Position numbers and translations under genes: made by a program. Under the pieces are notes generated by a model. The model was not told the DNA's origin. It did not search any database and saw only the letters and a list, made by a program, of their open reading frames with translations. A DNA stretch of 35,827 bases from a virus (taxonomy: Duplodnaviria > Heunggongvirae > Uroviricota > Caudoviricetes). This document shows, piece after piece, positions 2,411 through 35,827 of the stretch. How positions within the stretch are numbered: the stretch's first letter is position 1; the number at the start of each line of letters is the position of its first letter. Location: IMG/VR virus record IMGVR_UViG_2534681737_000011; one strand, written 5' to 3'.

Positions 2411-2413
2411 GAA

Positions 2414-2654: not shown

Positions 2655-2742
2655 CGGGGAATCGGGCGTGCATAGATATTATATAACACATTCGCTACGC
2701 TCATGTGTAAAACCAAAAACAACAAATAACCAAAAAGATATT

Positions 2743-2762
2743 AGGAGGGCGTAGCCCGACTG
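2743..2762. repeat. 20-bp element AGGAGGGCGTAGCCCGACTG (copy 1 of 2)
   Basis: Near-identical to 3176-3195 (2 mismatches, both in the loop of a GGGC/GCCC mini-hairpin). Confidence 0.7.
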
Positions 2763-2780
2763 CGCGAAGCGCTAACCAAT

Positions 2781-3030
2781 TACTTCTAGTAACACTAATT
2801 TAAACTAGATGATACTAGATGGTCTTAGAAGGAATTAACTAGTTTGCTCGCTCGCTTCGCTCACTCTCAAACGTCTGCGACGCCACTGCGTGGCATCGAG
2901 AATCACTTTTGAAAGGATTTTCTTAGAAAGGGATTTTAAACTAGTTACTAACTGATTCTAGAAAGATAGTAATAATCACTTTGAAGATAATAGTAGTTAA
3001 CTGGTTACTAGATGATTCTAGATCACTTTA
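2781..3030. repeat. CTAG-rich block of short direct repeats
   Basis: Eight CTAG tetramers within about 250 bp; about 25-bp imperfect direct repeat TTAAaCTaGTTACTAacTGATTCTAGA (2937-2965 vs 2997-3026); ATCACTTT(T)GAA at 2901, 2974, 3021; TCTTAGAA(A)GG at 2823 and 2921; GC-rich island at about 2845-2900. Confidence 0.7.
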
Positions 3031-3052
3031 ATGATCATGAAAGGTATTGGTT

Positions 3053-3081
3053 ATCCCTTCGGGATTGCAACCTTCGGTTGC
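3053..3081 (+). other. two tandem UUCG-tetraloop hairpins
   Basis: ATCCC-ttcg-GGAT immediately followed by GCAACC-ttcg-GGTTGC; no adjacent T-run, so not a classical terminator. Confidence 0.55.
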
Positions 3082-3175
3082 TAAATTTCTTCCTGATTAT
3101 TATTTCTTCAAAAGAAAGATTCTTATATTCTAAAGATACTTCTTCGTTTTGATGATGTTTTAATCAAATCTATGA

Positions 3176-3195
3176 AGGAGGGCTTTGCCCGACTG
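3176..3195. repeat. 20-bp element AGGAGGGCTTTGCCCGACTG (copy 2 of 2)
   Basis: Matches 2743-2762; the two copies bracket the CTAG-rich block. Confidence 0.7.
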
Positions 3196-3286
3196 AATAC
3201 CAATCCCTTCCAAAATCATCAAGAATTTTCTCTTATAAATAATATCAGAATTACTTTGATTCACTTTCTTTTAGAGGATTTCCATT

Positions 3287-3754
3287 ATGAACCATAAACT
3301 GACTACCACTACTCCTTTTATCCTTCTGGGTCTGGATGCAGATAGCTTTCACAATGACAAGTTAATGAAGATGTTCCGTGAACGTGGTTATAACATCCTT
3401 TACAATACCGATGAATCCCATTTCTCTAGTGCATGGTATGTTTTCGGAAGAAATAAACGTCCTACCATCGTTGTTAACTGCTTCACCGATGAAGACCGCC
3501 TGAAATACCAGAACATTCCAGCAATCATTGTTCGTGATGACCTGCCTTTCGAAGTCCGTGATTATGACATTGATTTAGGTAGCTTCGTTACTGTCTATGA
3601 ACTGGATGAAGCCATGTTTAACTACGGCAAAGAACCCGCTCAGGAAGCCCCAGAACACGATGAAGAAGATGAGGAAGACGAAGAATACGCGCCAATCTGT
3701 TTCTCTTCTCACGGTGGCTTCTACGGTTACGATGAAGGCTTAGATATGCTGTAA
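3287..3754 (+). CDS. strongly acidic hypothetical protein
   Basis: 155-aa ORF with GAGGA ribosome-binding site; Asp/Glu-rich throughout with a poly-acidic tract (EHDEEDEEDEE) near the C-terminus. Confidence 0.6.
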   Translation: MNHKLTTTTPFILLGLDADSFHNDKLMKMFRERGYNILYNTDESHFSSAWYVFGRNKRPTIVVNCFTDEDRLKYQNIPAIIVRDDLPFEVRDYDIDLGSFVTVYELDEAMFNYGKEPAQEAPEHDEEDEEDEEYAPICFSSHGGFYGYDEGLDML

Positions 3755-4296: not shown

Positions 4297-5109
4297 ATGA
4301 ATACTGTTACCGTTATGAATACTGCTAAAACTGCTTCCATGTCTCTGGTTGTTGATAACACCAAACCGCTGACCATGTCTTCCCGTCAGATCGCTGAATT
4401 TACCGGAAAAGAACATAAGCATGTTAAACGTGATATTAAAACTATGCTTACTTCTCTTGAATTAGATGAGTCCAAATTTGGACGCATCTTTTTTGACCAA
4501 TATGGACGTGAACAAACCGAATATCACCTTGACGAAGAACTTACGCTGACTCTTGTTACTGGTTACGATGTTAAGCGTCGAATGATTGTTATTCAGGAAT
4601 GGAAACGACTGAAAGAAGAAAATGAAAAACTGCGTCAGGAACGTTTAGCTGCTAACCCGTATGCAGACTTTGAAGAAACCGATTGGATCGAACTGGCATT
4701 AAAGAAAACTCGCGAAAATAAAAAGCTGATTGAACTTCATTATCGCAAATCCGTAGATAGCCATTCAATGACCCGTCTGTTAGGCGCTAAAAAGGGCGCT
4801 ACGAAGGTTAAAGAAGCACTGACGGCCTTGCGTACTGCTGGCTACATTGAGCGCGTCTACGATGAAAATAACAAGCCGTGTGGGTATGTTGCTAATGACT
4901 CTTCTCTGTCTTTCTGCCGCATGAATGCTCACTACCAACTTGAGTTTACTGTTGATGTGCTTCCGGTGCTGGTTGAATTGGGTGTTCTGGAAGAAGAACA
5001 AAAAGCAACTCTGAATCTTCCTAAGCCGAACAACACTATTCTGATTCAAAATAAAGCGGCTGAACGTCTCCGCCAGAATGTTGGATCACTGGAAGTCTTC
5101 GGACTGTAA
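4297..5109 (+). CDS. Rha-family phage regulatory protein (N-terminal Rha-like DNA-binding domain)
   Basis: N-terminal segment SSRQIAEFTGKEHKHVKRDI ... YGREQTEYHLDEELTLTLVTGY matches the Rha domain pattern as recalled from memory; ribosome-binding site AAGGGGAAT upstream. Confidence 0.65.
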   Translation: MNTVTVMNTAKTASMSLVVDNTKPLTMSSRQIAEFTGKEHKHVKRDIKTMLTSLELDESKFGRIFFDQYGREQTEYHLDEELTLTLVTGYDVKRRMIVIQEWKRLKEENEKLRQERLAANPYADFEETDWIELALKKTRENKKLIELHYRKSVDSHSMTRLLGAKKGATKVKEALTALRTAGYIERVYDENNKPCGYVANDSSLSFCRMNAHYQLEFTVDVLPVLVELGVLEEEQKATLNLPKPNNTILIQNKAAERLRQNVGSLEVFGL

Positions 5110-19528: not shown

Positions 19529-21883
19529 ATGACAAGACATATAGTAACAATAGAAGGAGATAATGACGGTCTAAGGAGAAGTACCAATCAGGCGATAGAG
19601 ATGCTTGATAACCTTTCAGAAAGGGCAATGAATCTTGATTTGTCTGGTGGTTTATCTAGTTTAAGTGGAACCCTTCGCGGAACTGGTGGATCGCTTGCTT
19701 TGGCTGCTGGTGGTTTTGTTGGTTTGGCTGCTGGCGCTATTTCTGCTGCAAATGCCATCGGTGATTATGTAAAGGAATACAGCGAAGTTTCAAAAGCAAC
19801 TGGTTTAACCGTCGAAACACTCCAGAAATTAGAGAAGCAATTCTCCGGTACTGGCTTAACCGTTGAGAAATTTGGTGATATTAACAAAGACACCTTAGAT
19901 AAGCTGGCTGATGCATGGCGTAACGGTGGCGGTATTGAAGACGACCTAGAAAGTGTAGGTTTGAAGATTAAAGATTATGCCGAGTTTATGAACGATCCAC
20001 AAGGCGGGATGAAAGCGGCGATCAAGGTCTTCTATGATATGCGCAAGGCTGGTGCGTCTATCGCTGATGTTAAGTTTATGATGGAATCGTTAGCCAGTGA
20101 TTCAAGTCATATGGCTGATGAATTGCAGAAATACGGATCTTATCAGGAAGCTGTAAACGCCATTAATCAGCAAACTGTTAAAATCACCAATGACACAGCC
20201 GAAGAATATAATAAATTCTCTAAAAATATGGATACCCTTACCGATAACTTAAAGGGTATGGCTGCAAATGCACTAAATCCAGTTGTTGAAGGGATGAATA
20301 ATCTTTACAACTGGTTTGATAAAGATTGGGAAAAGACCGCTTTATTCAACGCATTAAAGACTTTTAATGAAAGGTTTGAAAAAGCTCGCCAGAATATGGC
20401 TATGGCTAACGGTGGTTTTATTAACAAGCATGGTTATAGTTCTACTGGTCTAGCGGGTGGACAAGCCAGCTTCAACAATAAACCAAATTATCCTGATCGT
20501 TGGGTGGATAGTGAAGGCGTTACCCGTGATAAAAACGGTGATCCGGTAATTACTATCACTGGAAATAAATCGGATACCGGATTTACCCCAACGGGTCAAG
20601 GTGGAGGCGTCACCGGACCATCGAAAAAAGAACAAGAAGAAGCCAAGAAGAAAGCGGAAGAGGCAGCTAAAAAGGCTAAGGAAGCCGCAGAAAAAGCACA
20701 GAAAGCACGCGAGGATGCAATCAAGCGACTGAATGCTCTTGATGTTAAATTGCAAGGACAGACAGCCGCGTCTATTGCTTCTCAAAACAAGCAGTTAGAA
20801 GCCAGCTTGAAAGATTTAGACACTGCTTTAGATATGGGCTTAATCTCTCAGCAAGACGCAGCCGCTAAACGTCAGCAACTGTTAGATCAGAACGCAGAAA
20901 ACATCTATAAAATGATGTTGGGTGCTGATCCGATTGATGCTCTGAATGCCTTAACAGTTTTGCAACAAATCAGGGACAACGAGCTAGAAAGCCATAAACG
21001 GTTACTTGATGGTAAAGCTATCTCCTACGAAGAATATATGCGTCGTGTGAATGATACCGAGCAAAACTATTCTCAGATTGATAGTCAGTTACAGGGAATG
21101 GATGGTTTTAAAACCAATCAATTGACTAATAGCTTAGACTATCAGGATTCAAATAACCCGTTTGCTAAATTTAATGCAATCGATCAAGAGAAATCGGAAG
21201 CTGAACAAGATTATAAGACCGAAAAACTCAATATTGATGGTATTAATGATCCAGCTAAACGGATGGCTGCATTAGAAAAACTCAATGAAAACCATCAAAA
21301 ACGGATGGCTGCAATTGAAAAGAAATATGCTGATGCTCGCCAGTCAATAGCCGATGATATGTATGGCGGTTTTGCTGCTGCAATGACTCTCTTCGGGCAG
21401 GAAAACACTAAAGCTATGCAGACGGCTTTCAATGCTCATAAAGCATTCTCCATTGGACAAGCGACGGTGAACATGTGGACGGCTGCTACCGATGCATGGA
21501 ACGATCCGACCAACGTAACCACAGGACAAAAGATCGCTGCTGCTGCATTGGCTGTTTCTCAGAACATGGGGAACATCGCAAACATCAAATCGACTAACGT
21601 TAGCGGTATGGCTCATGATGGTATCGATAATATCCCTCGTGAGGGTACATGGTTGCTTGATAAGGGTGAACGAGTAGTTGATCAGCGTACTAACGGTGAT
21701 TTGAAAGACTTCTTATCTGCTCAAAAATCAGGCGGTGGTAACTCTCAGCCGATTGAAGTTAATGCGCCTTTGAACATTAACGGCAACGTTAATAGCTCAG
21801 ACAAGATGGTTATGGATGCTATCAAACGTCACGCTAAGTTAGTTGCTCAGGCGGTAGAAGACGCACAGCGTCGTAAGATGTAA
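19529..21883 (+). CDS. tail tape measure protein
   Basis: 784-aa ORF after the chaperone pair; Gly-rich N-terminal segment, long helical regions (KKEQEEAKKKAEEAAKKAKEAAEKAQKARE), typical position and composition. Confidence 0.8.
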   Translation: MTRHIVTIEGDNDGLRRSTNQAIEMLDNLSERAMNLDLSGGLSSLSGTLRGTGGSLALAAGGFVGLAAGAISAANAIGDYVKEYSEVSKATGLTVETLQKLEKQFSGTGLTVEKFGDINKDTLDKLADAWRNGGGIEDDLESVGLKIKDYAEFMNDPQGGMKAAIKVFYDMRKAGASIADVKFMMESLASDSSHMADELQKYGSYQEAVNAINQQTVKITNDTAEEYNKFSKNMDTLTDNLKGMAANALNPVVEGMNNLYNWFDKDWEKTALFNALKTFNERFEKARQNMAMANGGFINKHGYSSTGLAGGQASFNNKPNYPDRWVDSEGVTRDKNGDPVITITGNKSDTGFTPTGQGGGVTGPSKKEQEEAKKKAEEAAKKAKEAAEKAQKAREDAIKRLNALDVKLQGQTAASIASQNKQLEASLKDLDTALDMGLISQQDAAAKRQQLLDQNAENIYKMMLGADPIDALNALTVLQQIRDNELESHKRLLDGKAISYEEYMRRVNDTEQNYSQIDSQLQGMDGFKTNQLTNSLDYQDSNNPFAKFNAIDQEKSEAEQDYKTEKLNIDGINDPAKRMAALEKLNENHQKRMAAIEKKYADARQSIADDMYGGFAAAMTLFGQENTKAMQTAFNAHKAFSIGQATVNMWTAATDAWNDPTNVTTGQKIAAAALAVSQNMGNIANIKSTNVSGMAHDGIDNIPREGTWLLDKGERVVDQRTNGDLKDFLSAQKSGGGNSQPIEVNAPLNINGNVNSSDKMVMDAIKRHAKLVAQAVEDAQRRKM

Positions 21884-23193: not shown

Positions 23194-23613
23194 ATGCTAA
23201 AAACTAGGCTTATCACCGATTACATCAATTCTTTAATAGGTCAGGAGTTCGTTCAGGGTGAGAATGATTGCAATCTAATTGCATGTAAGATCATCGATAT
23301 TCTCGCTGGTACTGACCTATATAATTCTCTTTATAAAAAATATTCAACTAAAGAAGAAGGTTTGAAAATCTGCAAAGAATTAAGCGGGTATTCAAATATC
23401 CTTCAACCAATTAAGAAACATTTCAAATTAGTCACTGATGATTTACAGGACGGCGACTTACTGGTCACAGCCCACAAATTAGGAAACCGTAATTATTATT
23501 CCGTAGTTCCTCATTATTCCGGTTATGGCCTCGTTGAAGAAGATGGTATCTGGATGACCATTCCTGTTTCAGACATTGACTATGAACAAGTTTATAGATT
23601 CGGGGGTGAATAA
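23194..23613 (+). CDS. tail assembly protein, gpK-like (NlpC/P60-like Cys/His motifs)
   Basis: GGAGGT ribosome-binding site 8 nt before the ATG at 23194 (the 23038 start would overlap the previous gene); ENDC ... GDLLV ... H pattern suggests a papain-like NlpC/P60 fold. Confidence 0.55.
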   Translation: MLKTRLITDYINSLIGQEFVQGENDCNLIACKIIDILAGTDLYNSLYKKYSTKEEGLKICKELSGYSNILQPIKKHFKLVTDDLQDGDLLVTAHKLGNRNYYSVVPHYSGYGLVEEDGIWMTIPVSDIDYEQVYRFGGE

Positions 23614-26600
23614 TGGGATTTGAAGTATTGGTAGGCGCGGTTATTGCTGGTGCTTCGGCGGGGATGGCGGCAGCCGCAACATTTTCGGTTATGACCGCAG
23701 TCGCTATCGGTATGGCTGCTGGTGCAATGACTTTGATCGCTTCCACTGTAGGCGCACCAAAAACACCTAAAGTACAAAGCCCAGATAATGCGGTGACACT
23801 AGGAACATCAAACGATCCGAAAGCGGTGATACCAGTCGTTTTCGGTACTACCCGCACTGGCACAAACTGTGTTTACAAAGCAGTTTCTAAGCAAGAAAAC
23901 AATAAGCTAGTGCAAATCTTCTCTGTAGCCGAGGGTGAAATCGACCATTACAAAGCACTCTTTATTGATAATAAAAATGTTCTTGTTGGTAAGAACATGA
24001 CGATCCGTGATGGTATTCTCGATAAGGGCAACATTAAAGAAGAATATCGTAAAGTATTAGAAGTCGAGTTCCGCACGGGCAAGAATCCTAACACCGCTTT
24101 GTCGCTGGCAAAACGTCATTTAGGCTCAGACTGGACCGACGCTTTCAAGGGTAACGGCATTGCGACCATGTGTATTGTGTTACGTCGTGATGACAAATCT
24201 CTTGCTGCTGGTGTTGATATTCTCCAGCCAAATAGCCAGGTAGCAGTAGACGTTTGCGGCCTTAAAATCCGTAACCTTGAAACCAATGCTATTGAGGCTA
24301 GCACTAACGGCGTGGATCAGATTTTCCACTACCTAACAAATGAAAAATATGGCTTATCCGTACCAATTGAAAACATTAACGTTGATTCATTCCTGAAAGT
24401 ACGTAAACAAGTACGCCAGATGGATCTACATTCAAACGGTGCATGTGATCCGAACGCCAGCTTTAAAGAGAACTTGACTAATCTTATGCAGACTTTCGGC
24501 GGGGTGATGTTCGAATCCTTTGGACGTATTACGCTGAAACTGGATGCTCCTGATATTGTTAAGCATACCTTCAATGAAGACAATATCATGATGGGTAAGG
24601 TATCACTGAAAACAGGTGGCACTAACGGTTATTTCAATACCATTAACGCGATGTATCAAGAACCATCAATTGACTATTCAGAGCAAATGCTACGTTATCC
24701 GGCTGATGCTGAAAACGATGCTACTGTTCGCGCAGATGGTCGAATTATTGCTAAGGATGTAGAATATCGTTTCGTTAAGTCTAAAGATCAGATTGATAAA
24801 CTCGCGAGCATTGAGCGAAATAAATCTCGTATCACTCAGGTTATCAGCTTTATGACTACTGACGCATTCACTGCCGAAGTTTGGGATGTTATCAGCGTAA
24901 CCTATGATGAATTGAAGCTGAATAATTCCTTATGGCGTATTACTGCAATTGATCGCTCGATTGATTCTGGTATTGCTGGGATGATGACTATCACCGCCAC
25001 AGAATATAATTCTCAGGTTTATACTGACCTGAACTATGCGGCTAACCCAGATAACCGACCAAGTGGTTTACCGGATTCAATGACAGTACAGAAGCCTACT
25101 AATTTCAGGATTAAGGCAACTGGTGAGACGATTTACGGTAAAAACGTTACTTTGACATGGGACGCGCCGGAAGATTTTAACCGTTATGGTTTTCAGATTG
25201 ATTACCGTGTAAGCGGATCACCTAACTGGATTAAGCTGGGACAGACTTCACAGCAAATTTTTAGTGTCAATGCACTGGCTAAAGATCGTTCCTACGATTA
25301 CCGAGTTTGTGCTTTCGGTATCATCGCTCGATCCGATTGGGTAGAACTGGTTAACCAGAATCCGACTGTTACCTATGAATTGCCGACTCCGGTTATTCGA
25401 ATCAAAAATCAGGGTAGCACGCCTGGTACTTTCGAAGGCAATGATCTGATTATCGAATGGGAAAATCAGCAACAATTAGATGTTGAGATCAACGGTGAAA
25501 CTAACAAGTTTAGTGACCTGTTTGAAGCATACATTATCAAGGTGACTAACAAGGCTGGTAAGTCTATTCAGTACCGTACCCGCGATCCTGAATCATGGAC
25601 TTATACGCTTGATATGAACCAGTTTAACGGCCTTTCGCGTCAACTGACGGTAGAAGTATCAGCTAAGGGCTATAACAACTCAGAGAGCGCCCCAGCGCGT
25701 TTAGTGGCTATCAACCCACAACATAAGCCAATGAAAGGTTTTAGTGCGCGTGGTGGCTTTAATACTGCGTTTGTTAGCTGGGCGGATGACGTAGAACATG
25801 ACTATGCAGGGTCAATCATCCAGTATGCAACCGATAACACTTTCTCAGATGCAAGGGCGGTAAGCACGAATAGTGTTAGCCATACTTCCTTTGATTTGGC
25901 AGACGGTGATTATTATATCCGTGGTGCTCACTACGATATTTTCGGTATGGATGATGCTGTTTGGTCTGAACCGTATTTCATGCAAATGAAATCTACCATT
26001 AGCTGGGACGATCAGGACAAAGAAGCACTGGAAGACCTGATTGGTTTACAAGACCGCTTAGATGAAACTATCGCGGATGCTATTGCTCAAGCTGGCGCTA
26101 ATGCCGATGCTAAAATTGATGCAATGCATAAGCAAATCACTACCGAAACAGGGCAGACGGTCCAAGCCTCAGCCAATACCTTAAAGAGTCTGATTGCTAC
26201 CAGCGAGCAAGCTAGCTCCACTAAGATTGATCAGGTTAAAGCTGAACTGAAAGGCGATATCACCAAAGAAGTTAGTGCATCTGCTACTACCCTGAAACAA
26301 GCTATTGCTACCAGTGAAGCAGCAAGCGCAAGTAAGATTGACCAAGTTCGGGTAGAAATGGATGGCAAGATTGCTGGTGTGAATCAGGAAGCAGATGTAA
26401 AAATCGATGCTTTGAAGGGAACCATTAACAGCAAATATAATCTGGCGGTTAATGCAGATGGTCGCGTGGCTGGTATTCACATGAGCGCAACCAACGATCC
26501 GGCGCAACCGACGAGAATCATCTTTAATGCTGATAAAATTGCGGTAGCTCCACAGAACGGATCGGAAGTATGCCCGTTTGGTATCGAAGGTAACAAGGTT

Positions 26601-27389
26601 TATCTCGATAATGCGATGATTCGTAATGCTGCAATTGGTACAGCCCAGATTAATGATGCGGCGATTACCACGGCTAAAATCGGCAATGCTGCAATTAACA
26701 GCGCGAAGATTCAGGACGGGGCAATCACTAACGCGAAGATCGTAAACGGTGCAATTGATAACGCTAAAATCGGTAACTATATCCAGTCTTCCAACTGGAA
26801 CGGATCGACCGGATGGCATATCAACAAGAACGGGTCCGCTACGTTCATGAATGCAACCGTTAAAGGTAATATCACTGCCGATTCTGGTACTCTGAACAAC
26901 GTCACGATTAACTCTAGCTGTGTTATTAAGGGTATGCTTGAAGCTACTCAGGTTAAGGGGGATTTCGTTAAGGTGATTGGACGTAAGTTCCCGCATCGTG
27001 ATGTTAACGTTGATAATGGTTATGCTGGTTATCCACAGGGTACGGTCACTGTTCGCGTTGAAGATGATCACAAGTTCGATCGTCAAATCGTTATTCCGGC
27101 TGTTAGTTTTGGTGGATTGCGAGCGCGTGAAGGGTCGAACAATAATACCTATTACGACACCTGTCGCCTGATTGTTCGTAAGAATGGGTCAGAGTTGTAT
27201 AATAGGGCGTATGGCGGTAATACTGGTCTTTACTCAGGTGTTATTGATATGCCAGCGGGTAAAGGTGCTGTGACCTTGACCTTTGAAGTGCAATCAAGCG
27301 CAATCAACAACTGGACGCCTAGCACATGGATCAGTGATTTAACAGTAATGGTAACTAAAAAAGCCACTACTGGTATTACTGTTTCTTAA
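23613..27389 (+). CDS. tail tip / central fibre host-specificity protein, lambda J-like with N-terminal gpI-like hydrophobic segment
   Basis: 1258-aa ORF starting at a TAATG overlap; first about 60 aa (GAVIAGASAGMAAAATFSVMTAVAIGMAAGAMTLIASTVGAPKTPK) resemble the lambda gpI C-terminus; C-terminal region (DDHKFDRQIVIP ... IDMPAGKGAVTLTF ... MVTKKATTGITVS) resembles the lambda J receptor-binding end as recalled from memory. Confidence 0.8.
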   Translation: MGFEVLVGAVIAGASAGMAAAATFSVMTAVAIGMAAGAMTLIASTVGAPKTPKVQSPDNAVTLGTSNDPKAVIPVVFGTTRTGTNCVYKAVSKQENNKLVQIFSVAEGEIDHYKALFIDNKNVLVGKNMTIRDGILDKGNIKEEYRKVLEVEFRTGKNPNTALSLAKRHLGSDWTDAFKGNGIATMCIVLRRDDKSLAAGVDILQPNSQVAVDVCGLKIRNLETNAIEASTNGVDQIFHYLTNEKYGLSVPIENINVDSFLKVRKQVRQMDLHSNGACDPNASFKENLTNLMQTFGGVMFESFGRITLKLDAPDIVKHTFNEDNIMMGKVSLKTGGTNGYFNTINAMYQEPSIDYSEQMLRYPADAENDATVRADGRIIAKDVEYRFVKSKDQIDKLASIERNKSRITQVISFMTTDAFTAEVWDVISVTYDELKLNNSLWRITAIDRSIDSGIAGMMTITATEYNSQVYTDLNYAANPDNRPSGLPDSMTVQKPTNFRIKATGETIYGKNVTLTWDAPEDFNRYGFQIDYRVSGSPNWIKLGQTSQQIFSVNALAKDRSYDYRVCAFGIIARSDWVELVNQNPTVTYELPTPVIRIKNQGSTPGTFEGNDLIIEWENQQQLDVEINGETNKFSDLFEAYIIKVTNKAGKSIQYRTRDPESWTYTLDMNQFNGLSRQLTVEVSAKGYNNSESAPARLVAINPQHKPMKGFSARGGFNTAFVSWADDVEHDYAGSIIQYATDNTFSDARAVSTNSVSHTSFDLADGDYYIRGAHYDIFGMDDAVWSEPYFMQMKSTISWDDQDKEALEDLIGLQDRLDETIADAIAQAGANADAKIDAMHKQITTETGQTVQASANTLKSLIATSEQASSTKIDQVKAELKGDITKEVSASATTLKQAIATSEAASASKIDQVRVEMDGKIAGVNQEADVKIDALKGTINSKYNLAVNADGRVAGIHMSATNDPAQPTRIIFNADKIAVAPQNGSEVCPFGIEGNKVYLDNAMIRNAAIGTAQINDAAITTAKIGNAAINSAKIQDGAITNAKIVNGAIDNAKIGNYIQSSNWNGSTGWHINKNGSATFMNATVKGNITADSGTLNNVTINSSCVIKGMLEATQVKGDFVKVIGRKFPHRDVNVDNGYAGYPQGTVTVRVEDDHKFDRQIVIPAVSFGGLRAREGSNNNTYYDTCRLIVRKNGSELYNRAYGGNTGLYSGVIDMPAGKGAVTLTFEVQSSAINNWTPSTWISDLTVMVTKKATTGITVS

Positions 27390-27493: not shown

Positions 27494-27772
27494 ATGACTG
27501 AAATTATATATGGCGGTATCGGTGTTATCGCCTTAATTTGTGGTGGATTATGGAGACTTCACCGAAATCAATTAGCCACAGAAAATAGATTGTCGAAATT
27601 AGAATCCAGCGACGCATTGTTAAACCAGAAGTTTGAGACGATGCAAAGTAACCATGACCAGATCGCCGAGAGAGTTTATCGCATGGAACAAACCCTTCAC
27701 GGTATAGAAAAGAAAGTGGTTGCGATGGACGCTAAATTTGACCAAGTTCTAGACATACTCAAACAAAAATAA
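27494..27772 (+). CDS. membrane-anchored coiled-coil protein (lysis-associated candidate)
   Basis: 92-aa ORF with GGGGG ribosome-binding site; N-terminal transmembrane helix (IYGGIGVIALICGGLW) followed by a helical, heptad-like segment; triple TAA stop. Confidence 0.5.
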   Translation: MTEIIYGGIGVIALICGGLWRLHRNQLATENRLSKLESSDALLNQKFETMQSNHDQIAERVYRMEQTLHGIEKKVVAMDAKFDQVLDILKQK

Positions 27773-27791
27773 TAATAAAAGGGGTGAATAT

Positions 27792-27962
27792 ATGAAGAAT
27801 AAACTTAAGAAATATTTTGGTTATCTCTTGATTGTCGCCCTCACTTATAACGTAGCAATTAGACCTCTGCTAACGTCCTTTGGGCTTGAACTCCCGGCTA
27901 TGACCGTGGATGAACAATTGCTAAGGACACTGGCGGGGGTCTTTTCGTTATTAGGGGGCTAA
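27792..27962 (+). CDS. small membrane protein (56 aa), holin-like candidate; not in the ORF track
   Basis: AAAGGGGTGAAT ribosome-binding motif 6 nt before the ATG; translation MKNKLKKYFGYLLIVALTYNVAIRPLLTSFGLELPAMTVDEQLLRTLAGVFSLLGG; its stop overlaps the next gene's start region. Confidence 0.45.
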   Translation: MKNKLKKYFGYLLIVALTYNVAIRPLLTSFGLELPAMTVDEQLLRTLAGVFSLLGG

Positions 27963-27963
27963 C

Positions 27964-28647
27964 ATGGCAACCAGTACCAATAAACGAAACGCTCTAAGGA
28001 CTAAGAAAGCGTTGAGGCAATGGTCTGAAAAGGCAACCGATACATTCGAAAGGGCGATAGGGGAAGGGGCGATCTTTGCTTCCAGAGCACTCCAGAAGAA
28101 GATTAACAAGAATGTTGATAGACCTACTCGCTGGACTCAGCAAGCTGTAGGTAATACCAACTACAAGAACCGATCAGGGACGAGACACCAAATCTTCATT
28201 AAGGGCGCAAGGGATAAGGACAAGAAGATCGGCAGTCAGGATGACTATCTGAAACACTATTTCGATGGTGGCAAAATCAATAAGCTAGTGCCAATTGCCA
28301 ACGGTAAGGTCTTAGACGCCCACGGGAACATTAAGGCCATCAAAGGCGGTAAGATGATGCGTAACATCGAAAATGGCAACTTCATCAAGGTAGAGAACAA
28401 GGAAGGGACTTTTATCATGAAGAAGTACAAGCCTAAGAAATCCCGAACCAAACGCGCTAAGAATGGATCGGCGGTGGCAAAACGTCGCTTAGAGAAACGC
28501 ATCCAGAAACAGAGTAAGCGAATTGTTGCCGTTAAGTCGGATAAAATTTCTACTCGTTATTCGACGCTAGGATCGTGGGAAAGCAACGAGGAAATGATGC
28601 TTAAGAACATTAATAAGCACATTAAATCGCGCATGAGATACGTTTAA
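27964..28647 (+). CDS. highly basic Lys/Arg-rich protein, function unknown
   Basis: 227-aa ORF with very high K/R content throughout; no catalytic motif recognised. Confidence 0.55.
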   Translation: MATSTNKRNALRTKKALRQWSEKATDTFERAIGEGAIFASRALQKKINKNVDRPTRWTQQAVGNTNYKNRSGTRHQIFIKGARDKDKKIGSQDDYLKHYFDGGKINKLVPIANGKVLDAHGNIKAIKGGKMMRNIENGNFIKVENKEGTFIMKKYKPKKSRTKRAKNGSAVAKRRLEKRIQKQSKRIVAVKSDKISTRYSTLGSWESNEEMMLKNINKHIKSRMRYV

Positions 28648-28685
28648 TCCATAAATACCCTCATAGAATCTTATGGGGGTATAAC

Positions 28686-29033
28686 ATGGCTAAAAATATT
28701 TTCACTGAATTTCCTACTTATCCGGTCGATCAACTTTCCGGTATTTTTATCAATGGCATTAGCCCAGAATCAATGACCTATGATTTTGAGGCGAAGAGAG
28801 TTAAACATAAACAATATAAAGAATGTATCCGTGACCATGAAAAGGGGACCGTGTTTTGTGTCGCTACATTGGCTAAACGTCCTAAGTATCGTTTTCGTGT
28901 AGGACAAGAAGTTGATGTGGTTAATCCTTATAGTTTTAACTGTCTGGGCGATGCACGCGCGGTGTGTGTAGGCACTGCTCCTTATTATATCAAGGGTATG
29001 CGCTTTATTGGTTATATCTTCGAAATGATCTAA
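28686..29033 (+). CDS. hypothetical protein
   Basis: 115-aa ORF with GGGGGT ribosome-binding site. Confidence 0.55.
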   Translation: MAKNIFTEFPTYPVDQLSGIFINGISPESMTYDFEAKRVKHKQYKECIRDHEKGTVFCVATLAKRPKYRFRVGQEVDVVNPYSFNCLGDARAVCVGTAPYYIKGMRFIGYIFEMI

Positions 29034-29042
29034 GGGGGTAAT

Positions 29043-29396
29043 ATGTTAAGTAAGCATTTTTCTCGCAAGGAATTTAAATGTAAATGCGGAAAATGTGATT
29101 ATGATACTATCGATGCCGAATTACTGGTAATTCTTGAGGATGTACGAGAGCACTTCGGTAAACCAGTGATTATTAACAGTGGCAACCGTTGCCCGACTCA
29201 TAACAAGAATGTAGGCGGTGCAACCAATAGCTATCATGTTCGAGGCCGTGCGGCTGACATTGTGATCAAGGGTGTCTCCCCTGATATTGTCCATGCTTAT
29301 CTTGATGGGAAATATCCTACTCAATACGGCTTAGGCAAATATAAAACCTTTACGCATATCGATTCCAGATCGAAAAAATCACGATGGAATGGATAA
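29043..29396 (+). CDS. endolysin, zinc peptidase M15-type (L-alanyl-D-glutamate or D-Ala-D-Ala peptidase-like)
   Basis: Motifs SRKEFKCKCGKC, SYHVRGRAADI and FTHID fit the H-x6-D ... H zinc-binding pattern of M15 peptidases; AAGGGGGTAAT ribosome-binding motif. Confidence 0.7.
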   Translation: MLSKHFSRKEFKCKCGKCDYDTIDAELLVILEDVREHFGKPVIINSGNRCPTHNKNVGGATNSYHVRGRAADIVIKGVSPDIVHAYLDGKYPTQYGLGKYKTFTHIDSRSKKSRWNG

Positions 29397-29427: not shown

Positions 29428-30927
29428 TTATATAGCAATTGTTTTAGTTGCATAGCTGAACTTGTCGGTTAGATAATAGCGGATTCTCTCAAGTGCATGT
29501 TTTACCGCATAATTTTTATGCTTGACTTTTCCGTTACGACCGAATATACACAGATGATCGATAAGATCCCAGACCGTTGCAATGTCTTTCGAACCATGTT
29601 TACGCAATGCACGACCGATACTCTGACGAACGATAGTTGATTCCTTCACTGGATGACCGAAAATAACATGGTGCAAATTCTTAATTGAAACACCAGTAGA
29701 GAACACACCATAGGATGCAACGCAAATGATCCCTGTTTCCCCTTCCGCTAATTTCTTAAATTCATCACGTTCTTCTGTCTTAACCCCACCGTCAATATAA
29801 TAAACCTTGTCGTGTACCTTCTGTAACGCATCATACATAAGTTTTCCGTGCTTAGTGTTGCGGAACATCAGGAATACGTTTTCGCCCTTCTTAGCGAGTT
29901 TTAGCGCCAAATTACAAGCAAACTTATTTCGTCGTGGATTAGACGTAATATACTTGATCTCTTCCGCATATTCTCGCCCCTTAACCGCGCTACATTCCTC
30001 ATCGGTATAACGAAGGAAAAGACAGTTAATTTTCAGTTTTGTCACCTGCCCTTCTTCCATCAGGCGGTCAATGCTAACGATCTTAGAAATATCACCGAAA
30101 AGCCCGACATACTGCATTAAATGGCACTTTGATTCTTTCGGGGAACCAGTCATACCGATTTTGAACTGGCAATGATTCATTCCGTTAATGATATTGGTAA
30201 TATTTTTGGCACTAGCCTTATGCGATTCATCAACTATCAACATTCCATATTGTCGGAACCATTCAGGAGGCATCTTGCAAGCTGATTGCCAGGTACTAAC
30301 CGTGATTAACCTGTCTCCCGGATGTTTCCCGCTACCACTCATCATTGTATGAATTGCTTCATAAGGGAATAGCCTATAATCGATGAAATCATCCCTCAGT
30401 TGAACCACTAGCGATGTAGTCGGAACAATGATTAGAACTTTTCCGGTGTAATGCTCTAAGTACCAACGAGACAGCATACAAGCAATCAATGACTTACCCG
30501 CACTGGTAGGAAGAACCAGCATTCTACGGCGATTATGGATACCCTGAAAGACTGCCTCCCTTTGATACCAATAAGGATTGATTTTATTGCTACCGGAATA
30601 CACTTCTAAGGAATCAATCCATTCATTAATCGCGTCTTTGGTTACATCTTCCTTATCAAGCAATCGCGGGTCAATCCAGACTGAATAGCCCATATTTTTA
30701 ACGAAGACACCCAATGTTTTTAATAGTCCAATTGGTAGGGTATTTTCATGCGTAAACAGTCTTATTCGTCCATCCCAGCCGGAATACTTGTAGCGGGGGC
30801 TAAACTTAGCCCCTTCAACCTCAAACGAGAAATAATCTCTTAATTCCATTCCGATAGAAGGAGAGCAATCAACCTTAACGAAACTGTAATCTTGAAAATG
30901 AATTTTAATATCTTGCATTAGTTCCAC
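29428..30927 (-). CDS. uvsW: ATP-dependent DNA helicase, UvsW-like (superfamily 2)
   Basis: Walker A (LPTSAGKS), DExH box (IVDESH) and C-terminal helicase motifs (VASYGVFSTGVSIKNLHHV); N-terminal region resembles the T4 UvsW N-domain as recalled from memory. Confidence 0.75.
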   Translation of the reverse strand: MELMQDIKIHFQDYSFVKVDCSPSIGMELRDYFSFEVEGAKFSPRYKYSGWDGRIRLFTHENTLPIGLLKTLGVFVKNMGYSVWIDPRLLDKEDVTKDAINEWIDSLEVYSGSNKINPYWYQREAVFQGIHNRRRMLVLPTSAGKSLIACMLSRWYLEHYTGKVLIIVPTTSLVVQLRDDFIDYRLFPYEAIHTMMSGSGKHPGDRLITVSTWQSACKMPPEWFRQYGMLIVDESHKASAKNITNIINGMNHCQFKIGMTGSPKESKCHLMQYVGLFGDISKIVSIDRLMEEGQVTKLKINCLFLRYTDEECSAVKGREYAEEIKYITSNPRRNKFACNLALKLAKKGENVFLMFRNTKHGKLMYDALQKVHDKVYYIDGGVKTEERDEFKKLAEGETGIICVASYGVFSTGVSIKNLHHVIFGHPVKESTIVRQSIGRALRKHGSKDIATVWDLIDHLCIFGRNGKVKHKNYAVKHALERIRYYLTDKFSYATKTIAI

Positions 30928-31487
30928 TCCACACTTGCAATATTCTTTATATTGTTTAGTGATTTATTGCAGTAGTGGAATGTTTCAGTTTTGCCGTATT
31001 CAATCCCGCCTATACCCACATCCAGTAATCTCTTTATTGCTCTTTCAGTGGCTAAAGCATGTTTCATTGATGGCATTTCACCAGCAAAGACAATATCAAA
31101 GTCATGACCGGGATTGCGTACACCTAGATTAATGCGTCGCTTGATGATTGACTTTGTAACACCAAATTTACCAATATCCCCTGATTTCATTACATAGAGA
31201 TAAGGCACACCCGCTTTATATTGAAAGTAATCACTTTTGAGACAAGCACAGCGTTTACCTTCATTAAGCAGGTTAGTAGCTGATTTGTCGGCTCTATTGC
31301 CACATCGGGTACATGTAAGAGCAATTCTTGAATGAAGCCCTTTAAACTCACCCAGAAAGCCATGAAAGACTAATGGTAAGTCCTTATCTTTGATGTGAGT
31401 CAGAATGCGTTGTTCTAATGCCGATGGAGTTACAGCACGGGAGGATTTAGGAGTAAAAACAATATCTTTAGCCATTACTGGAATCAT
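30918..31487 (-). CDS. zinc-finger / GIY-YIG-like (T5orf172-type) putative endonuclease
   Basis: GTGAGGT ribosome-binding site before the ATG at 31487; Cys-rich segment CTRCGNRADKSATNLLNEGKRCAC; C-terminal YLYVMKSGDIGKFGVTKSIIKRRINL fits the GIY ... YIG ... R pattern; 3-prime end overlaps the helicase gene by 10 nt. Confidence 0.55.
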   Translation of the reverse strand: MIPVMAKDIVFTPKSSRAVTPSALEQRILTHIKDKDLPLVFHGFLGEFKGLHSRIALTCTRCGNRADKSATNLLNEGKRCACLKSDYFQYKAGVPYLYVMKSGDIGKFGVTKSIIKRRINLGVRNPGHDFDIVFAGEMPSMKHALATERAIKRLLDVGIGGIEYGKTETFHYCNKSLNNIKNIASVEWN

Positions 31488-31529
31488 ATAGACCTCACTT
31501 TTTAACTTATAGGCATAACCTCAATATGG

Positions 31530-31558
31530 TTGGTTTGGGATTTAGGGTCGCGTATTAT
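31530..31558 (+). promoter_or_regulatory. candidate sigma70 promoter (-35 TTGGTT, 17-bp spacer, -10 TATTAT)
   Basis: Located in the 153-bp divergent intergenic region, about 80 bp upstream of the 31641 start. Confidence 0.4.
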
Positions 31559-31640
31559 ACACATCCAGATAGAGAATGCAATAGTAAGACAATTTTCTCT
31601 GATAAATAGTAGTGAACTTATTATTTTAGAGGAAACTACT

Positions 31641-32816
31641 ATGAAACTTGCTTACGCTGCCGAAATTCCTTTTGTTAAGAAAACTCGCGGTTTATCGCCG
31701 GAAGAGTACCAACAACGAATCATCGCTAAACTGGAACCTGCTTTCGTATTTGGTGGATTTATCCTACCGTGGAAGGGTAATCACACTTACTTTCGAATCT
31801 ACAATTTAGACACACAAGAATATAAGGACTACAAATTACGCAAACTGGAAGATACTAACGGGGGTGAGTTATTCCAGACTGAAAAGGCTGTATGGTTGAA
31901 AATGGAATCTCGTTGTAATGAGAAGGGAAAGAAATTCCTCGGATGGCAAGGAGAATGGAAAGGGCGAAATAGAACGAAAGCCCGTGTTTTGTGCCCTGAA
32001 CACAATCAAATCATGACGCCATCTCTATTACATGCTCTCAAAGATGATTTCGATTTTGATTGCAAAATCTGTATGGCTGAAAAATCCCAACGGGTAAGAA
32101 GTGGCAAGACTTTTGATGAAGTTATTAAGGACAAAGAGACAATCATCAATGCACGTTGCGAGAGTACGCCTTACACCTTCAAAGGATTCATCATAAACAC
32201 CCCACACCTAAAGGATGTTAAATTTAAAACCTATTGCAAGACACATAACCACGAATGGGAATCTCATTTAAGATGTGCTGATTCTTTCACTTGTCCGCTT
32301 TGCATTAAAGACCAACTGGTGCAACTGTCTAACCGGACTTATCAGGGTAAGGCTAGTTTCTACATTCAATTATTAGATGACAAATTTATTAAATTTGGAA
32401 TCACTACCCGGAAACCAGAAGAACGAATGAGAGAGCAAACCAGAAAGAGCAACTTCACTCACCGCTTAATCTTTACTCATGAGTTTGAGGATGGTTGGAA
32501 AGCCGTTGATTTAGAGCATGAAGTAAAACAACGCTTCAAGACTCATGCAGCACCCTACAAAGATTTCAAGGATGGATGGTCGGAAACTCTGACTATTGAT
32601 GAGTTGCCACACTTACAGCAACTGGTTTATGACTACCTAACCAATCAACCGGACGAGGCTAATATGTGGGTATCCCCGAAAGATGTATTTGATGACGATA
32701 CATTCAAGCTACATACTCACTTCTACGGCATCAATAAACCGGAATTTTTCTGTATTGATGACGACAGTCCTGATTTAATGGATGAATACTTTAATGCTCT
32801 CTTAGATGCTGCCTAG
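31641..32816 (+). CDS. zinc-finger / GIY-YIG-like (T5orf172-type) putative endonuclease, divergent paralog-like partner
   Basis: Start chosen at the ATG with AGAGGA ribosome-binding site (31627-31632) rather than the track start at 31530; repeated Cys/His modules (CPEHNQ ... CKICMAEK; CKTHNHEW ... CPLCIKDQ); C-terminal FYIQLLDDKFIKFGITTRKPEERMRE fits the GIY ... YIG ... R ... E pattern. Confidence 0.55.
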   Translation: MKLAYAAEIPFVKKTRGLSPEEYQQRIIAKLEPAFVFGGFILPWKGNHTYFRIYNLDTQEYKDYKLRKLEDTNGGELFQTEKAVWLKMESRCNEKGKKFLGWQGEWKGRNRTKARVLCPEHNQIMTPSLLHALKDDFDFDCKICMAEKSQRVRSGKTFDEVIKDKETIINARCESTPYTFKGFIINTPHLKDVKFKTYCKTHNHEWESHLRCADSFTCPLCIKDQLVQLSNRTYQGKASFYIQLLDDKFIKFGITTRKPEERMREQTRKSNFTHRLIFTHEFEDGWKAVDLEHEVKQRFKTHAAPYKDFKDGWSETLTIDELPHLQQLVYDYLTNQPDEANMWVSPKDVFDDDTFKLHTHFYGINKPEFFCIDDDSPDLMDEYFNALLDAA

Positions 32817-34569: not shown

Positions 34570-34588
34570 ACCATTTCCAAACAAAAAC

Positions 34589-34618
34589 GCCCCTACCGCG
34601 TATTATAACGATAGGGGC
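34589..34618 (-). terminator. hairpin plus U-run on the minus strand (terminator candidate, or part of a recombinase-adjacent site)
   Basis: GCCCCT ... AGGGGC arms around an 18-nt loop, preceded on the plus strand by ACAAAAAC; lies between the 34635 gene and the recombinase start. Confidence 0.4.
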
Positions 34619-34634
34619 ATTGGTTAGTAAGTCA

Positions 34635-34880
34635 TTAATATTTCTTTCCAGTTAGTTTTGCATCACGTTTATTAATATCCTCGATATGACTCCATACACA
34701 CGCAGTAATAAAGTCGTCATCGTCACCAACTCCGGCAACCTGTGCTAATTCAGTACACAGTTGATTTAAAGAAGGTGCAACGGCAGCACGTTTGACACTA
34801 TCACCCTGTACATATTGTTCGGCATTTGCAGCACCAACCAAACCCAGAGCAAGAACGATACCAGCGATAATCTTTTTCAT
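34635..34880 (-). CDS. small secreted or periplasmic protein (signal peptide, no lipobox)
   Basis: N-terminal MKKIIAGIVLALGLVGAANA-EQ looks like a signal peptide with an AxA cleavage site; acidic DDDD tract. Confidence 0.55.
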   Translation of the reverse strand: MKKIIAGIVLALGLVGAANAEQYVQGDSVKRAAVAPSLNQLCTELAQVAGVGDDDDFITACVWSHIEDINKRDAKLTGKKY

Positions 34881-34911
34881 AATTGAATTTCCTCTTGTTA
34901 TTAGAATTTAA

Positions 34912-35253
34912 TTAGTCTTTGAAGTCGATGGTCACGTTACCTTTAAGGGCAAGTTCCATTAAACAACTGCGCTCGTCCTTCATGCTCTTACACAATTTCA
35001 TCCCGTAAACAACGAGATTATCTTTCTCTTTCCAATATTTTTGTTTATCTGCATAAACCTCGCTATATTCACTGTCTTTGAGTGAGAGAGCATTTTCTAA
35101 CTGGCTAATCTCCTGATTCAGATCCTTAATCTCGGCCTTATTTGACCGGATAGTCTCTTGATGTTGAGTATCGGAATAGTCATACCCACAAACAAATCCA
35201 CCGATGCCACCAACACACACAGAAACAATAATTGCGTAGATAGTCTTTTTCAT
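34912..35253 (-). CDS. membrane-anchored coiled-coil protein
   Basis: N-terminal hydrophobic helix (IYAIIVSVCVGGIGGFVCG) followed by a heptad-like segment (EIKDLNQEISQLENALSLKD); the architecture resembles an inner-membrane spanin, but no lipoprotein partner is seen. Confidence 0.5.
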   Translation of the reverse strand: MKKTIYAIIVSVCVGGIGGFVCGYDYSDTQHQETIRSNKAEIKDLNQEISQLENALSLKDSEYSEVYADKQKYWKEKDNLVVYGMKLCKSMKDERSCLMELALKGNVTIDFKD

Positions 35254-35294
35254 AATTGAATCCTCTTTGAATGAATTACGATATATTTATATCG

Positions 35295-35420
35295 TTAAAA
35301 GTTGATGCTGATTACCAGACCAAACACAACCGCACCAATCAAATCAATCCAGTTAATACACAATCCGCTATATTCTTTCTTGAATGTCTTAGATGAAATG
35401 CCATCATGAAATTGTTTCAT
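35295..35420 (-). CDS. small membrane protein (41 aa); not in the ORF track
   Basis: Translation MKQFHDGISSKTFKKEYSGLCINWIDLIGAVVFGLVISINF; preceded by a GGGGTGAG ribosome-binding motif matching the motif used by other genes in this window. Confidence 0.4.
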   Translation of the reverse strand: MKQFHDGISSKTFKKEYSGLCINWIDLIGAVVFGLVISINF

Positions 35421-35423
35421 TGC

Positions 35424-35504
35424 TCACCCCATACTAACGACAATATAAGAAAGGCTGATCATAGTTGTGAGACTACCTCCCACGAATGAGATAAAAGCTA
35501 ACAT
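35424..35504 (-). CDS. very small hydrophobic peptide (26 aa); not in the ORF track
   Basis: Translation MLAFISFVGGSLTTMISLSYIVVSMG with GGAGA ribosome-binding site 8 nt upstream; stop overlaps the ribosome-binding site of the 41-aa ORF. Confidence 0.3.
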   Translation of the reverse strand: MLAFISFVGGSLTTMISLSYIVVSMG

Positions 35505-35521: not shown

Positions 35522-35548
35522 AAAAAGCGGTGGGAATTGCACCCACCA
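35522..35548 (-). terminator. rho-independent terminator for the 35558..35827 gene
   Basis: GGTGGG-aattgc-CCCACC hairpin (with flanking pairs) preceded on the plus strand by AAAAA, which is a U-run on the minus strand. Confidence 0.6.
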
Positions 35549-35557
35549 AATTAGAAA

Positions 35558-35827
35558 TTACTTCTTGCTAATAAACTCTTTGTAGATAAAATCTAAGACT
35601 TCCTTTAACTTCTTATCGGTGCCAATCATCGCCGGAAGTTCTTCTTTAATATCGCGAGGAAGATACACATTACCTTTCCAGAACAAGCAACCACATTGAG
35701 CAATCGAATAGCTGAACATCCATTCACAATCTTGTTCTATCTCCCAGAATCTAACCTGCTCATCTTCGAGTTGAAGTTCGATTCCACGGCGGCGAGCATA
35801 GTTATGGATTGCTTTGGTAATGTTCAT
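35558..35827 (-). CDS. hypothetical protein (start codon at the window edge)
   Basis: 89-aa ORF whose ATG coincides with the last bases of the window; upstream signals lie outside the window. Confidence 0.5.
   Translation of the reverse strand: MNITKAIHNYARRRGIELQLEDEQVRFWEIEQDCEWMFSYSIAQCGCLFWKGNVYLPRDIKEELPAMIGTDKKLKEVLDFIYKEFISKK

Follow-up and report, generated by a model that had tools for sequence, protein, structure and literature searches.

Organization of the locus

The stretch analysed here, called the window throughout, is the whole of IMG/VR virus record IMGVR_UViG_2534681737_000011 (35,827 nt; Caudoviricetes). It covers nearly the entire length of a siphovirus-type temperate prophage of about 36.8 kb, inserted in the ycdX gene of E. 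coli. The subject of this report is a cluster of four small genes, located at the att-proximal end of the prophage, directly 5' of a large serine recombinase gene and on the same strand. In the original prediction, made from the letters of the window, the cluster had been described as encoding a protein with a signal peptide, a coiled-coil protein anchored in the membrane and two very small hydrophobic peptides, beside a recombinase: these features are confirmed, and the four minus-strand open reading frames (ORFs) were reproduced exactly by ORF listing. Signal peptide and topology prediction, proposed at the time as a check, indicates a signal peptidase I (SPase-I) signal for the protein of 81 amino acids (aa), an N-terminal anchor for the 113-aa protein and one helix for each tiny peptide. 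Ribosome-binding sites (RBS) had been claimed for the tiny peptides; Shine-Dalgarno-like sequences are found ahead of all four ORFs: GGAG, 8 nt ahead of the ATG, for the 26-aa ORF1, GGGGTGAG for the 41-aa ORF2, AGAGGA for the 113-aa gene and GAGGA for the 81-aa gene. The features of the locus are reported below in gene order, TM standing for transmembrane and AF2 for AlphaFold2.

35528-35548, minus strand: hairpin T1, GGTGGG-TGCAATT-CCCACC followed by a U-tract, just 5' of ORF1 (terminator scan)
35424-35504, minus strand: ORF1, hydrophobic peptide of 26 aa with a single helix (MLAFISFVGGSLTTMISLSYIVVSMG); part of the conserved core, not annotated
35295-35420, minus strand: ORF2, 41-aa tail-anchored peptide with a C-terminal TM helix; conserved core gene
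35278-35295, no strand: 18-bp palindrome ACGATATAAATATATCGT, between the ORF2 stop and the start of the 113-aa gene; unique in the window
35207-35266 and 34834-34893, minus strand: duplicated initiation/signal-sequence module, AGAGGA(A)TTCAATTATGAAAAAGA plus the first ~15 codons
34912-35253, minus strand: 113-aa cargo gene, N-terminal Gly-rich TM anchor and long helix (AF2 model)
34635-34880, minus strand: 81-aa cargo gene, SPase-I signal peptide (residues 1-20) and 61-aa periplasmic part (AF2 model)
34586-34621, minus strand: strong terminator hairpin T2, at the junction of cargo and recombinase (terminator scan)
32890-34569/34584, minus strand: large serine recombinase (integrase), 559/564 aa, Pfam Recombinase and Zn_ribbon_recom

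A conserved pair of membrane peptides

ORF1 and ORF2 feature a single hydrophobic segment each, and comparison of relatives shows them to be a conserved pair of single-helix membrane peptides, accompanying the recombinase in every relative examined. ORF2 is intact in all of the 72 loci, and ORF1 was found in 69 of them: the misses are a Y to C variant, which is still intact, a last-codon frameshift and a third locus. At the E. coli locus L022 (9749-9850), where the recombinase is interrupted by an insertion sequence (IS), a 1-nt insertion in a G-run at the last ORF1 codon extends the frame to 33 aa, overlapping ORF2. The two peptides are always encoded 5' of the recombinase, directly so in relatives without downstream cargo, and this synteny spans 71-100% recombinase identity, including a non-E. 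coli host.

A word-based search, together with an exhaustive hidden Markov model (HMM) search, defined an ORF2 family of about 18 alleles of 39-41 aa, in which the pattern M[KR]QFH[DEQ]GISSKTF precedes the TM helix. Its most diverged members likewise adjoin the recombinase; the other HMM matches are a 90-aa protein, matched over its C-terminal 37 residues, and an unrelated protein of 2086 aa (E=1.3e-4). The ratio of nonsynonymous to synonymous substitution rates (dN/dS) is 0.10-0.19 for six ORF2 alleles, with dS up to 0.9, and whole-codon indels occur at two positions. The cytoplasmic N-terminus, MKQFHDGISSKTFKK, is invariant: its 15 residues are kept despite 5-6 synonymous changes, including a serine switch from TCT to AGC, and the constraint is therefore on the peptide, not on the DNA.

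For ORF1 at least 12 distinct peptide alleles of 25-27 aa are available, all hydrophobic and sharing the pattern ..LISF....I.S.VY.VV; a hydrophobic ORF of 25-27 codons persists in seven deeply diverged allele groups. The synonymous difference (pS) exceeds the nonsynonymous one (pN), significantly so in several pairs (Fisher p 2e-4 to 0.02). As judged from these patterns and from those of the larger genes reported below, all four ORFs are protein-coding genes under purifying selection.

It is very unlikely that the 26- and/or 41-aa ORFs are untranslated, and that the ~300-bp stretch acts as a regulatory leader with a terminator, promoter or operator. PGAP calls neither ORF, and the TATATT within ORF1 is the -10 of the only gene-strand promoter match of the built-in scan, which would fit such a leader. 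Against it stand the dN/dS of 0.1-0.19, the codon indels and the change of serine codon family in ORF2, the length and hydrophobicity of ORF1, maintained through near-saturating divergence with pS above pN, and the ATGA stop-start overlaps with neighbouring frames in relatives. As to annotation, the original prediction had listed the tiny peptides as unannotated: this is correct for RefSeq/PGAP in the closest genome, where both ORF1 and ORF2 are left out, and does not extend to GenBank as a whole, since a few records list 41-aa homologues as hypothetical proteins.

An interchangeable cargo slot

The interval from ORF2 to the recombinase, indicated as the slot, was compared in the 65 loci carrying the palindrome. 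Its content is as follows.

113-aa and 81-aa genes together: 26 loci
81-aa gene alone: 20 loci
137/139-aa protein with the same signal peptide: 11 loci
113-type gene (106/113 aa) alone: 6 loci
75-aa secreted protein: 1 locus
homing endonuclease (348-aa insertion): 1 locus

The 113-type gene is thus present in 32 of the 65 loci and absent from 33, while the 81-aa gene is present in 46. The 113- and 81-aa genes are thus cassettes independent of each other, and these data show them to be exchangeable cargo, placed behind a shared RBS/signal module and bounded by the palindrome and T2. For every cargo product encoded after ORF2, export or a membrane location is predicted, save for the one homing-endonuclease insertion. 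Elsewhere in the clusters of relatives, secreted 75-80-aa helical proteins with two cysteines and a lipoprotein are found, along with a 62-aa protein without export signal.

Distant relatives, whose recombinase is 71-77% identical to that of the window, are also inserted in ycdX. The csgG gene of their hosts, called non-E. coli, is not detectably E. coli-like in default (megablast) blastn. In four non-E. coli loci there is no cargo between ORF2 and the recombinase, only T2, with ~30-65 nt from stop to start. In these relatives, where the slot is free of cargo, the exported cargo is encoded between ORF1 and ORF2: a helical protein of 75-80 aa, with two cysteines and a signal peptide of its own. 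This secreted family features a C-x(9-13)-C motif. One distant relative carries a gene for a 106-aa lipoprotein (lipobox ISGC) 5' of ORF1; the loci noted for this lipoprotein and the secreted family are L068/L069, 3417-3737; L067, 3777-4004; L073, 2145-2378; and L075, 3762-4004. In the distant relatives the start of ORF1 overlaps the preceding stop codon, the ORF1 stop overlaps the next start (ATGA), and ORF2 overlaps the preceding gene: by translational coupling, these genes and those upstream of them make up one operon, starting at the att junction.

When the 81-aa protein and the secreted 75-80-aa family were aligned by hhalign, the signal peptides alone aligned, and homology of the mature parts was not shown; between the 113-aa family and the same secreted family no homology was detected. 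No match was obtained when the GTDB representatives were scanned for the pattern, and the sole match of a recombinase-based species scan was a 512-bp contig (L072, JANCAF010000145.1, from an Actinacidiphila cocklensis assembly), 98% identical to the recombinase and almost certainly due to contamination.

Predicted products of the cargo genes

The 113-aa product is predicted to be an inner-membrane-anchored coiled-coil stalk, about 9 nm long. Its hydrophobic segment (residues 8-22, Kyte-Doolittle hydropathy 2.38) contains a GGxGG motif; in the AF2 model, with a predicted local distance difference test score (pLDDT) of 72-85 over residues 31-110, a 62-residue periplasmic helix (28-89) is followed by a short back-folded helix (94-105). 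The long helix is heptad-periodic, with a hydrophobic fraction of 0.61 at the a/d positions. Two cysteines are invariant: Cys88, where the long helix ends, and Cys97, in the short helix.

The 81-aa product is predicted to be a free, Sec-exported periplasmic helical hairpin. Its signal peptide has the n-h-c organization, ends in an AXA site (..GAANA|EQ) and has no lipobox cysteine, the first cysteine being residue 42; none of the four window proteins carries a lipobox. The AF2 model (core pLDDT 76-91) pairs helices 27-49 and 55-77, with one invariant cysteine in each, Cys42 and Cys61. The two cysteines of each protein are inferred to form a disulfide.

Both families were found in E. coli only, in a search of 5.8 billion proteins, and both feature in-frame indels: the 81-aa family comprises 15 clusters, diverging to 73% identity, and the 113-aa family 5 clusters, diverging to 60%. 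For the former dN/dS is 0.15 at dS~1; for the latter it is 0.3-0.4 overall and 0.12 in the C-terminal part.

In the original prediction the 113-aa protein had alternatively been likened to an inner-membrane spanin, a role in disrupting the outer membrane at lysis for which the 81-aa protein or a tiny peptide might be the partner. Its architecture, an N-terminal TM segment followed by a periplasmic coiled coil with cysteines, is that of Rz-type i-spanins. A weak match to phrog_739, an Rz-like spanin family (E=0.0024, 19 bits), and the lack of a recognisable spanin beside the endolysin agree with this possibility. Yet a six-frame scan of the whole window, including embedded, overlapping and adjacent frames, yielded no credible lipobox ORF, and the 81-aa protein has an SPase-I site in place of a lipobox cysteine. 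Moreover, the gene is located outside the lysis cassette, 5.5 kb from the endolysin gene, on the opposite strand and between two terminators; a 113-type gene is missing from 33 of the 65 loci, which share the same structural and lysis genes, and no spanin appears among the fold matches in BFVD. A spanin role is thus extremely improbable. The candidate was rejected, three of the four defining tests (partner, location/universality, profile/fold) having come out negative.

Hairpins, palindrome and repeated modules

T1 has a folding energy of -11.4 kcal/mol (z=-2.65). In diverged T1 alleles the stem undergoes a compensatory change (GCGGG/CCCGC) and the loop is invariant, while the U-tract is lost; T1 is absent in the distant relatives, where ORF1 overlaps the upstream stop codon. 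T2 is more stable (-23.7 kcal/mol, z=-4.4), and its loop carries a perfect TATAAT. In distant relatives (L067, L068, L073, L075) the hairpin is retained with compensatory stem changes, and the TATAAT is kept. This TATAAT is the best gene-strand promoter match by position weight matrix (PWM), yet it scores below the shuffle median; a recombinase promoter may be embedded in T2. Transcripts starting from such a promoter would miss the 5' arm of the hairpin and so escape termination.

From allele to allele the palindrome hardly varies, less than the coding DNA on either side of it, and a distant relative features a compensatory variant, GCGTTATAAATATAACGT. It is absent where no cargo is found 3' of ORF2, and travels with the downstream cargo: it forms part of the cassette, at its 5' end. 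Possible roles for it are those of an operator, a -10-like element (TATAAATA) or a weak RNA hairpin, for which the predicted energy is just -5.7 kcal/mol. The motif TATAAATA, of T4-late type, occurs 6 times in the window versus 2.9 expected, a difference which is not significant.

The two initiation/signal-sequence modules form a 55-nt direct repeat with 73% identity, and their pattern is found twice in the window versus zero expected by chance. The same 5' module heads the 137/139-aa and 75-aa cargo genes of relatives. The duplicated modules are likely to serve as homology arms for cassette swapping.

No sigma-70 promoter above shuffle expectation was found in the module, in the reconstructed attP or in attL, by either a built-in scan or the PWM. 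On the gene strand the built-in scan gave a sole match, whose -10, TATATT, lies inside ORF1 and encodes the conserved Y-I-V. The best regional PWM match is antisense, overlaps the palindrome and points into ORF2; its score, 10.3, equals the shuffle median. Base composition does not set the cluster apart from its surroundings: the GC fraction is 0.425-0.431 over 33-35 kb versus 0.39-0.475 elsewhere in the window.

The prophage and its distribution

The type of the prophage is indicated by its gene set, identified by PHROG and Pfam: large terminase, portal, fused protease-capsid, tail tube and tape measure, along with a J-like tip, a long fibre and an M15 endolysin. The recombinase matches PHROG 95, integrase (E=3e-63), and its recorded annotation includes a Resolvase domain. 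Other window features are reported below.

19529-21883: tape-measure protein
23613-27389: tail tip protein
27494-27772: 92-aa protein with a TM segment and a coiled coil, lysis region
27792-27962: 56-aa protein with two TM segments, holin-like, lysis region
29043-29396, plus strand: M15 peptidase endolysin, lysis region (27494-29396)
35558-35827, minus strand: 89-aa cytoplasmic protein gene, first of the att-proximal array and outside the four-gene cluster (phrog_6147, E=1e-31)

In the copy of strain PSJ-22 the element is ~36.8 kb long and splits ycdX; in some relatives the insertion site is hicB or ybgA instead. The ATG of the 89-aa gene is located ~35-45 bp from the attL crossover, and the four-gene cluster therefore lies within the outermost, inward-pointing gene array of the prophage. 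At this distance from the crossover of the first array gene, integration cuts the array off from whatever adjoins it across attP. attL and attR share the imperfect core GGGAT(T/G)GC(C/T)TA(A/T)TAT (junctions: window end, 35827; L027, 995-1050 and 37899-37930), and a non-coding stretch of ~360 bp is found on the attR side. The 89-aa protein has 420 homologues among the small early-region genes of large lytic myoviruses (phAPEC8/rV5-like, Campylobacter and Vibrio phages), an unexpected link for a temperate prophage of siphovirus type.

The lysis region also encodes a very basic protein of 227 aa, and neither a lipoprotein nor a recognisable spanin was found in it. Between endolysin and recombinase, the block at 29428-32816 contains a UvsW-type helicase gene and two homing-endonuclease-like genes of the GIY-YIG/CapR kind. 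Its content differs widely from relative to relative, with an IS1 insertion, a Phage_Inh_N protein or other genes, and it represents a second cargo hotspot. In the left 6 kb of the window, nothing was seen that is obviously a CI-type repressor or a replication module, the sole regulator seen being Rha/Ant-like (4297-5109); here, the ~1.1 kb at 2200-3287 are without any ORF of at least 70 aa, and in the ~940 bp at 662-1603 each strand contains a long ORF, of 313 aa (minus) and 311 aa (plus).

The exact 113- and 81-aa proteins were found in more than 1300 data blocks, all of them E. coli chromosomes or E. coli-like contigs; the region is carried by 58 of 5426 complete E. coli genomes (~1%), and the prophage is widespread in E. 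coli of animal and human origin. A literature search for the ycdX prophage returned nothing relevant.

Possible function of the module

Neither DNA searches with the region nor tblastn with the 113- and 81-aa proteins gave a match among GenBank phages. Pfam, PHROGs, NCBIfam and PADLOC returned only sub-threshold coiled-coil and signal-peptide noise, and Rfam nothing near its gathering thresholds, with no antisense or small RNA (sRNA) match. Foldseek comparison of the 81-aa model with the PDB gave a best E of 4.5 and no Spackle chain; that of the 113-aa model with BFVD gave matches all with E above 1. Sequence-profile searches of the PDB returned coiled-coil chance matches and one designed repeat protein, and no Spackle. 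The four genes constitute four orphan families, without a Pfam, PHROG, NCBIfam or PADLOC model and restricted to this prophage lineage.

The module is tentatively regarded as a device of the superinfection-exclusion type, serving competition between phages at the inner membrane and in the periplasm, an assignment held at somewhat less than even confidence. ORF1 and ORF2 would be its constant membrane component, while the swappable periplasmic proteins would act as the specificity component, catching an incoming tail tip, tape-measure protein or muralytic activity. The array might be transcribed as one, from the 89-aa gene through T1, ORF1, ORF2, the cargo and T2 to the recombinase, with T1 and T2 as attenuators. 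It might be active on the circular genome, early in infection and jointly with the recombinase; another possibility is a promoter at the palindrome, either weak or regulated. The TATAAT of T2 may serve the recombinase. As no promoter was detected and, in distant relatives, the coupled operon begins at the att junction, expression mainly from the circular genome is possible.

The variable slot, with presence or absence of the 113- and 81-aa genes and with other exported proteins in relatives, is compatible with exclusion and strengthens this assignment; orphan, lineage-restricted families, typical of accessory phage genes, were also counted in its favour, as were the prediction of exported products, the AF2 models and the T4 precedent discussed below. 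The proposal of the original prediction that these are moron-type genes is compatible with the 113- and 81-aa genes, which behave as presence/absence cargo, and fails for ORF1 and ORF2, a conserved core in every relative examined.

Several observations weigh against exclusion. Exclusion by a prophage needs expression in the lysogen, and no convincing sigma-70 promoter was found in the module, attP or attL; neither in sequence nor in fold was a resemblance to a known exclusion protein detected. The dN/dS values indicate purifying rather than diversifying selection, diversity being generated by cassette replacement. The moron proposal, for its part, is qualified in that ORF1 and ORF2 are not morons and in that the GC content of the cluster is like that of its surroundings. 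Finally, ORF2 is strictly linked to the recombinase, and its role could lie in integration rather than exclusion.

In this last case, the module would be linked to integration or to establishing lysogeny: small regulators in the membrane, expressed along with the recombinase, would be encoded by ORF2 and perhaps ORF1, and the cargo would be incidental. These regulators might, for instance, act on the recombinase or on its directionality factor, by tethering or modulation, or titrate a membrane protease such as FtsH, like lambda CIII, encoded in the int-containing pL operon. The constant position of ORF2 5' of the recombinase, with T2 alone in between in the four non-E. coli loci, is in agreement with such a role, as are the invariance of the 15 cytoplasmic N-terminal residues despite synonymous change and the lack of space for a separate promoter, except for the TATAAT of the T2 loop. 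The array also begins at the att crossover, so that a promoter across attP would be cut off from it by integration. The synteny, however, may be due simply to the closeness of the genes at the end of the prophage; no similarity to CIII or to any regulator was found, known serine-integrase directionality factors are soluble proteins, and the tendency of the neighbouring slot to gather only exported proteins is left unexplained. An integration-related role is on the whole considered unlikely. Exported small proteins of disulfide type, in a variable slot at the end of a prophage found in more than 1300 data blocks and in 58 of 5426 complete genomes, might as well provide lysogenic conversion for the benefit of the host (stress, serum, bile or colicin resistance, adhesion or curli), in the manner of lambda Bor and Lom and without phage exclusion. 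This possibility, regarded as distinctly unlikely, is weakened by the lack of similarity to virulence or fitness factors and of a detected promoter of its own, and it does not account for the conserved tiny peptides.

The tiny peptides might also be membrane toxins, similar to type I toxins or acting in abortive infection, controlled by an antisense RNA or by neighbour genes. Ibs, ShoB, TisB and Ldr toxins are similar in size and hydrophobicity to one-helix peptides of 25-41 aa, and the best PWM promoter match is antisense, overlaps the palindrome and is directed into ORF2. Its score, though, is not significant, Rfam has no matching antisense RNA or sRNA, and the peptides are encoded in tandem and translationally coupled in a multi-gene operon, unlike stand-alone type I loci: there is little probability that they are toxins of this kind.

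Exclusion, the tentative assignment, and integration control meet in a wider proposal, which must be considered doubtful: ORF1, ORF2 and the small secreted two-Cys helical protein may form an unrecognised three-part membrane/periplasm system, hard-wired to the recombinase of ycdX-integrating enterobacterial prophages. As a modular exclusion system, the constant membrane pair would present interchangeable periplasmic specificity subunits; as a membrane-tethered controller, the system would couple the state of the envelope, or superinfection, to the decision to integrate or excise.

Comparison with known systems

The analysis adds two evolutionarily validated small membrane proteins, of 26 and 41 aa, left unannotated by RefSeq/PGAP in the closest genome, and describes a compact layout for swapping periplasmic effectors, made of a conserved palindrome, a shared RBS and signal peptide, and a terminator. 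Should the exclusion assignment be true, the module would be a new, very small envelope-level defence in ~1% of complete E. coli genomes, with a bearing on host range in phage therapy; should it be tied to the recombinase, it would represent an unusual membrane input to serine-integrase control. On either reading, it offers a tractable test bed for small-protein function.

The nearest functional model is provided by T4, where Spackle, a helical periplasmic protein of 75 aa in its mature form with one disulfide, is the product of an early gene, inhibits the incoming tail lysozyme and works alongside Imm (PMC7677548). As with Spackle (gp61.3) and Imm, a small Sec-exported helical two-Cys protein is found here with one or more small inner-membrane proteins, encoded among small genes of early type. 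There is, in contrast, no similarity of sequence or fold: the membrane components are of 26 and 41 aa and are not Imm, the periplasmic part is swappable, and the element is a temperate prophage.

A similarity to Rz/Rz1 spanins is limited to the 113-aa protein, with its N-in bitopic topology and periplasmic coiled coil with cysteines; it differs from them in that no o-spanin gene is present, the gene is optional and outside the lysis cassette, and the profile match is marginal. Lipoprotein receptor blockers of the Cor/Llp type differ in carrying a lipobox, absent from the four window proteins; the 106-aa ISGC lipoprotein belongs to the cluster of a distant relative. The tiny peptides, single-helix products of 25-41 aa missed by annotation pipelines, resemble type I toxins and other small E. 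coli membrane proteins such as Ibs, ShoB, TisB and Ldr. Unlike these, they are arranged in tandem and coupled in an operon, and neither an antisense RNA family nor sequence similarity was found.

As to genomic organization, cargo hotspots are found on the integrase side of P2/P4-like elements, and prophage-encoded defences near the integrase of mycobacteriophages. Here too, a fixed integrase-side slot swaps unrelated genes by means of conserved flanks; the cargo, however, consists of tiny exported proteins sharing a signal peptide, rather than of cytoplasmic defence systems, and PADLOC gave no meaningful match. Bor, Lom and Cor are examples of morons of lambdoid and other temperate phages. Like these lysogenic-conversion cassettes, the 113- and 81-aa genes are optional at a fixed position beside att and int, encode envelope proteins and are followed by a strong terminator. 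They differ in having no detected promoter of their own, a GC content equal to that of their flanks and conserved adjacent genes, ORF1 and ORF2, and in that their products are neither lipoproteins nor outer-membrane beta-barrels. The module thus consists of orphan families, arranged as a variant of the familiar accessory cassette of prophage ends.

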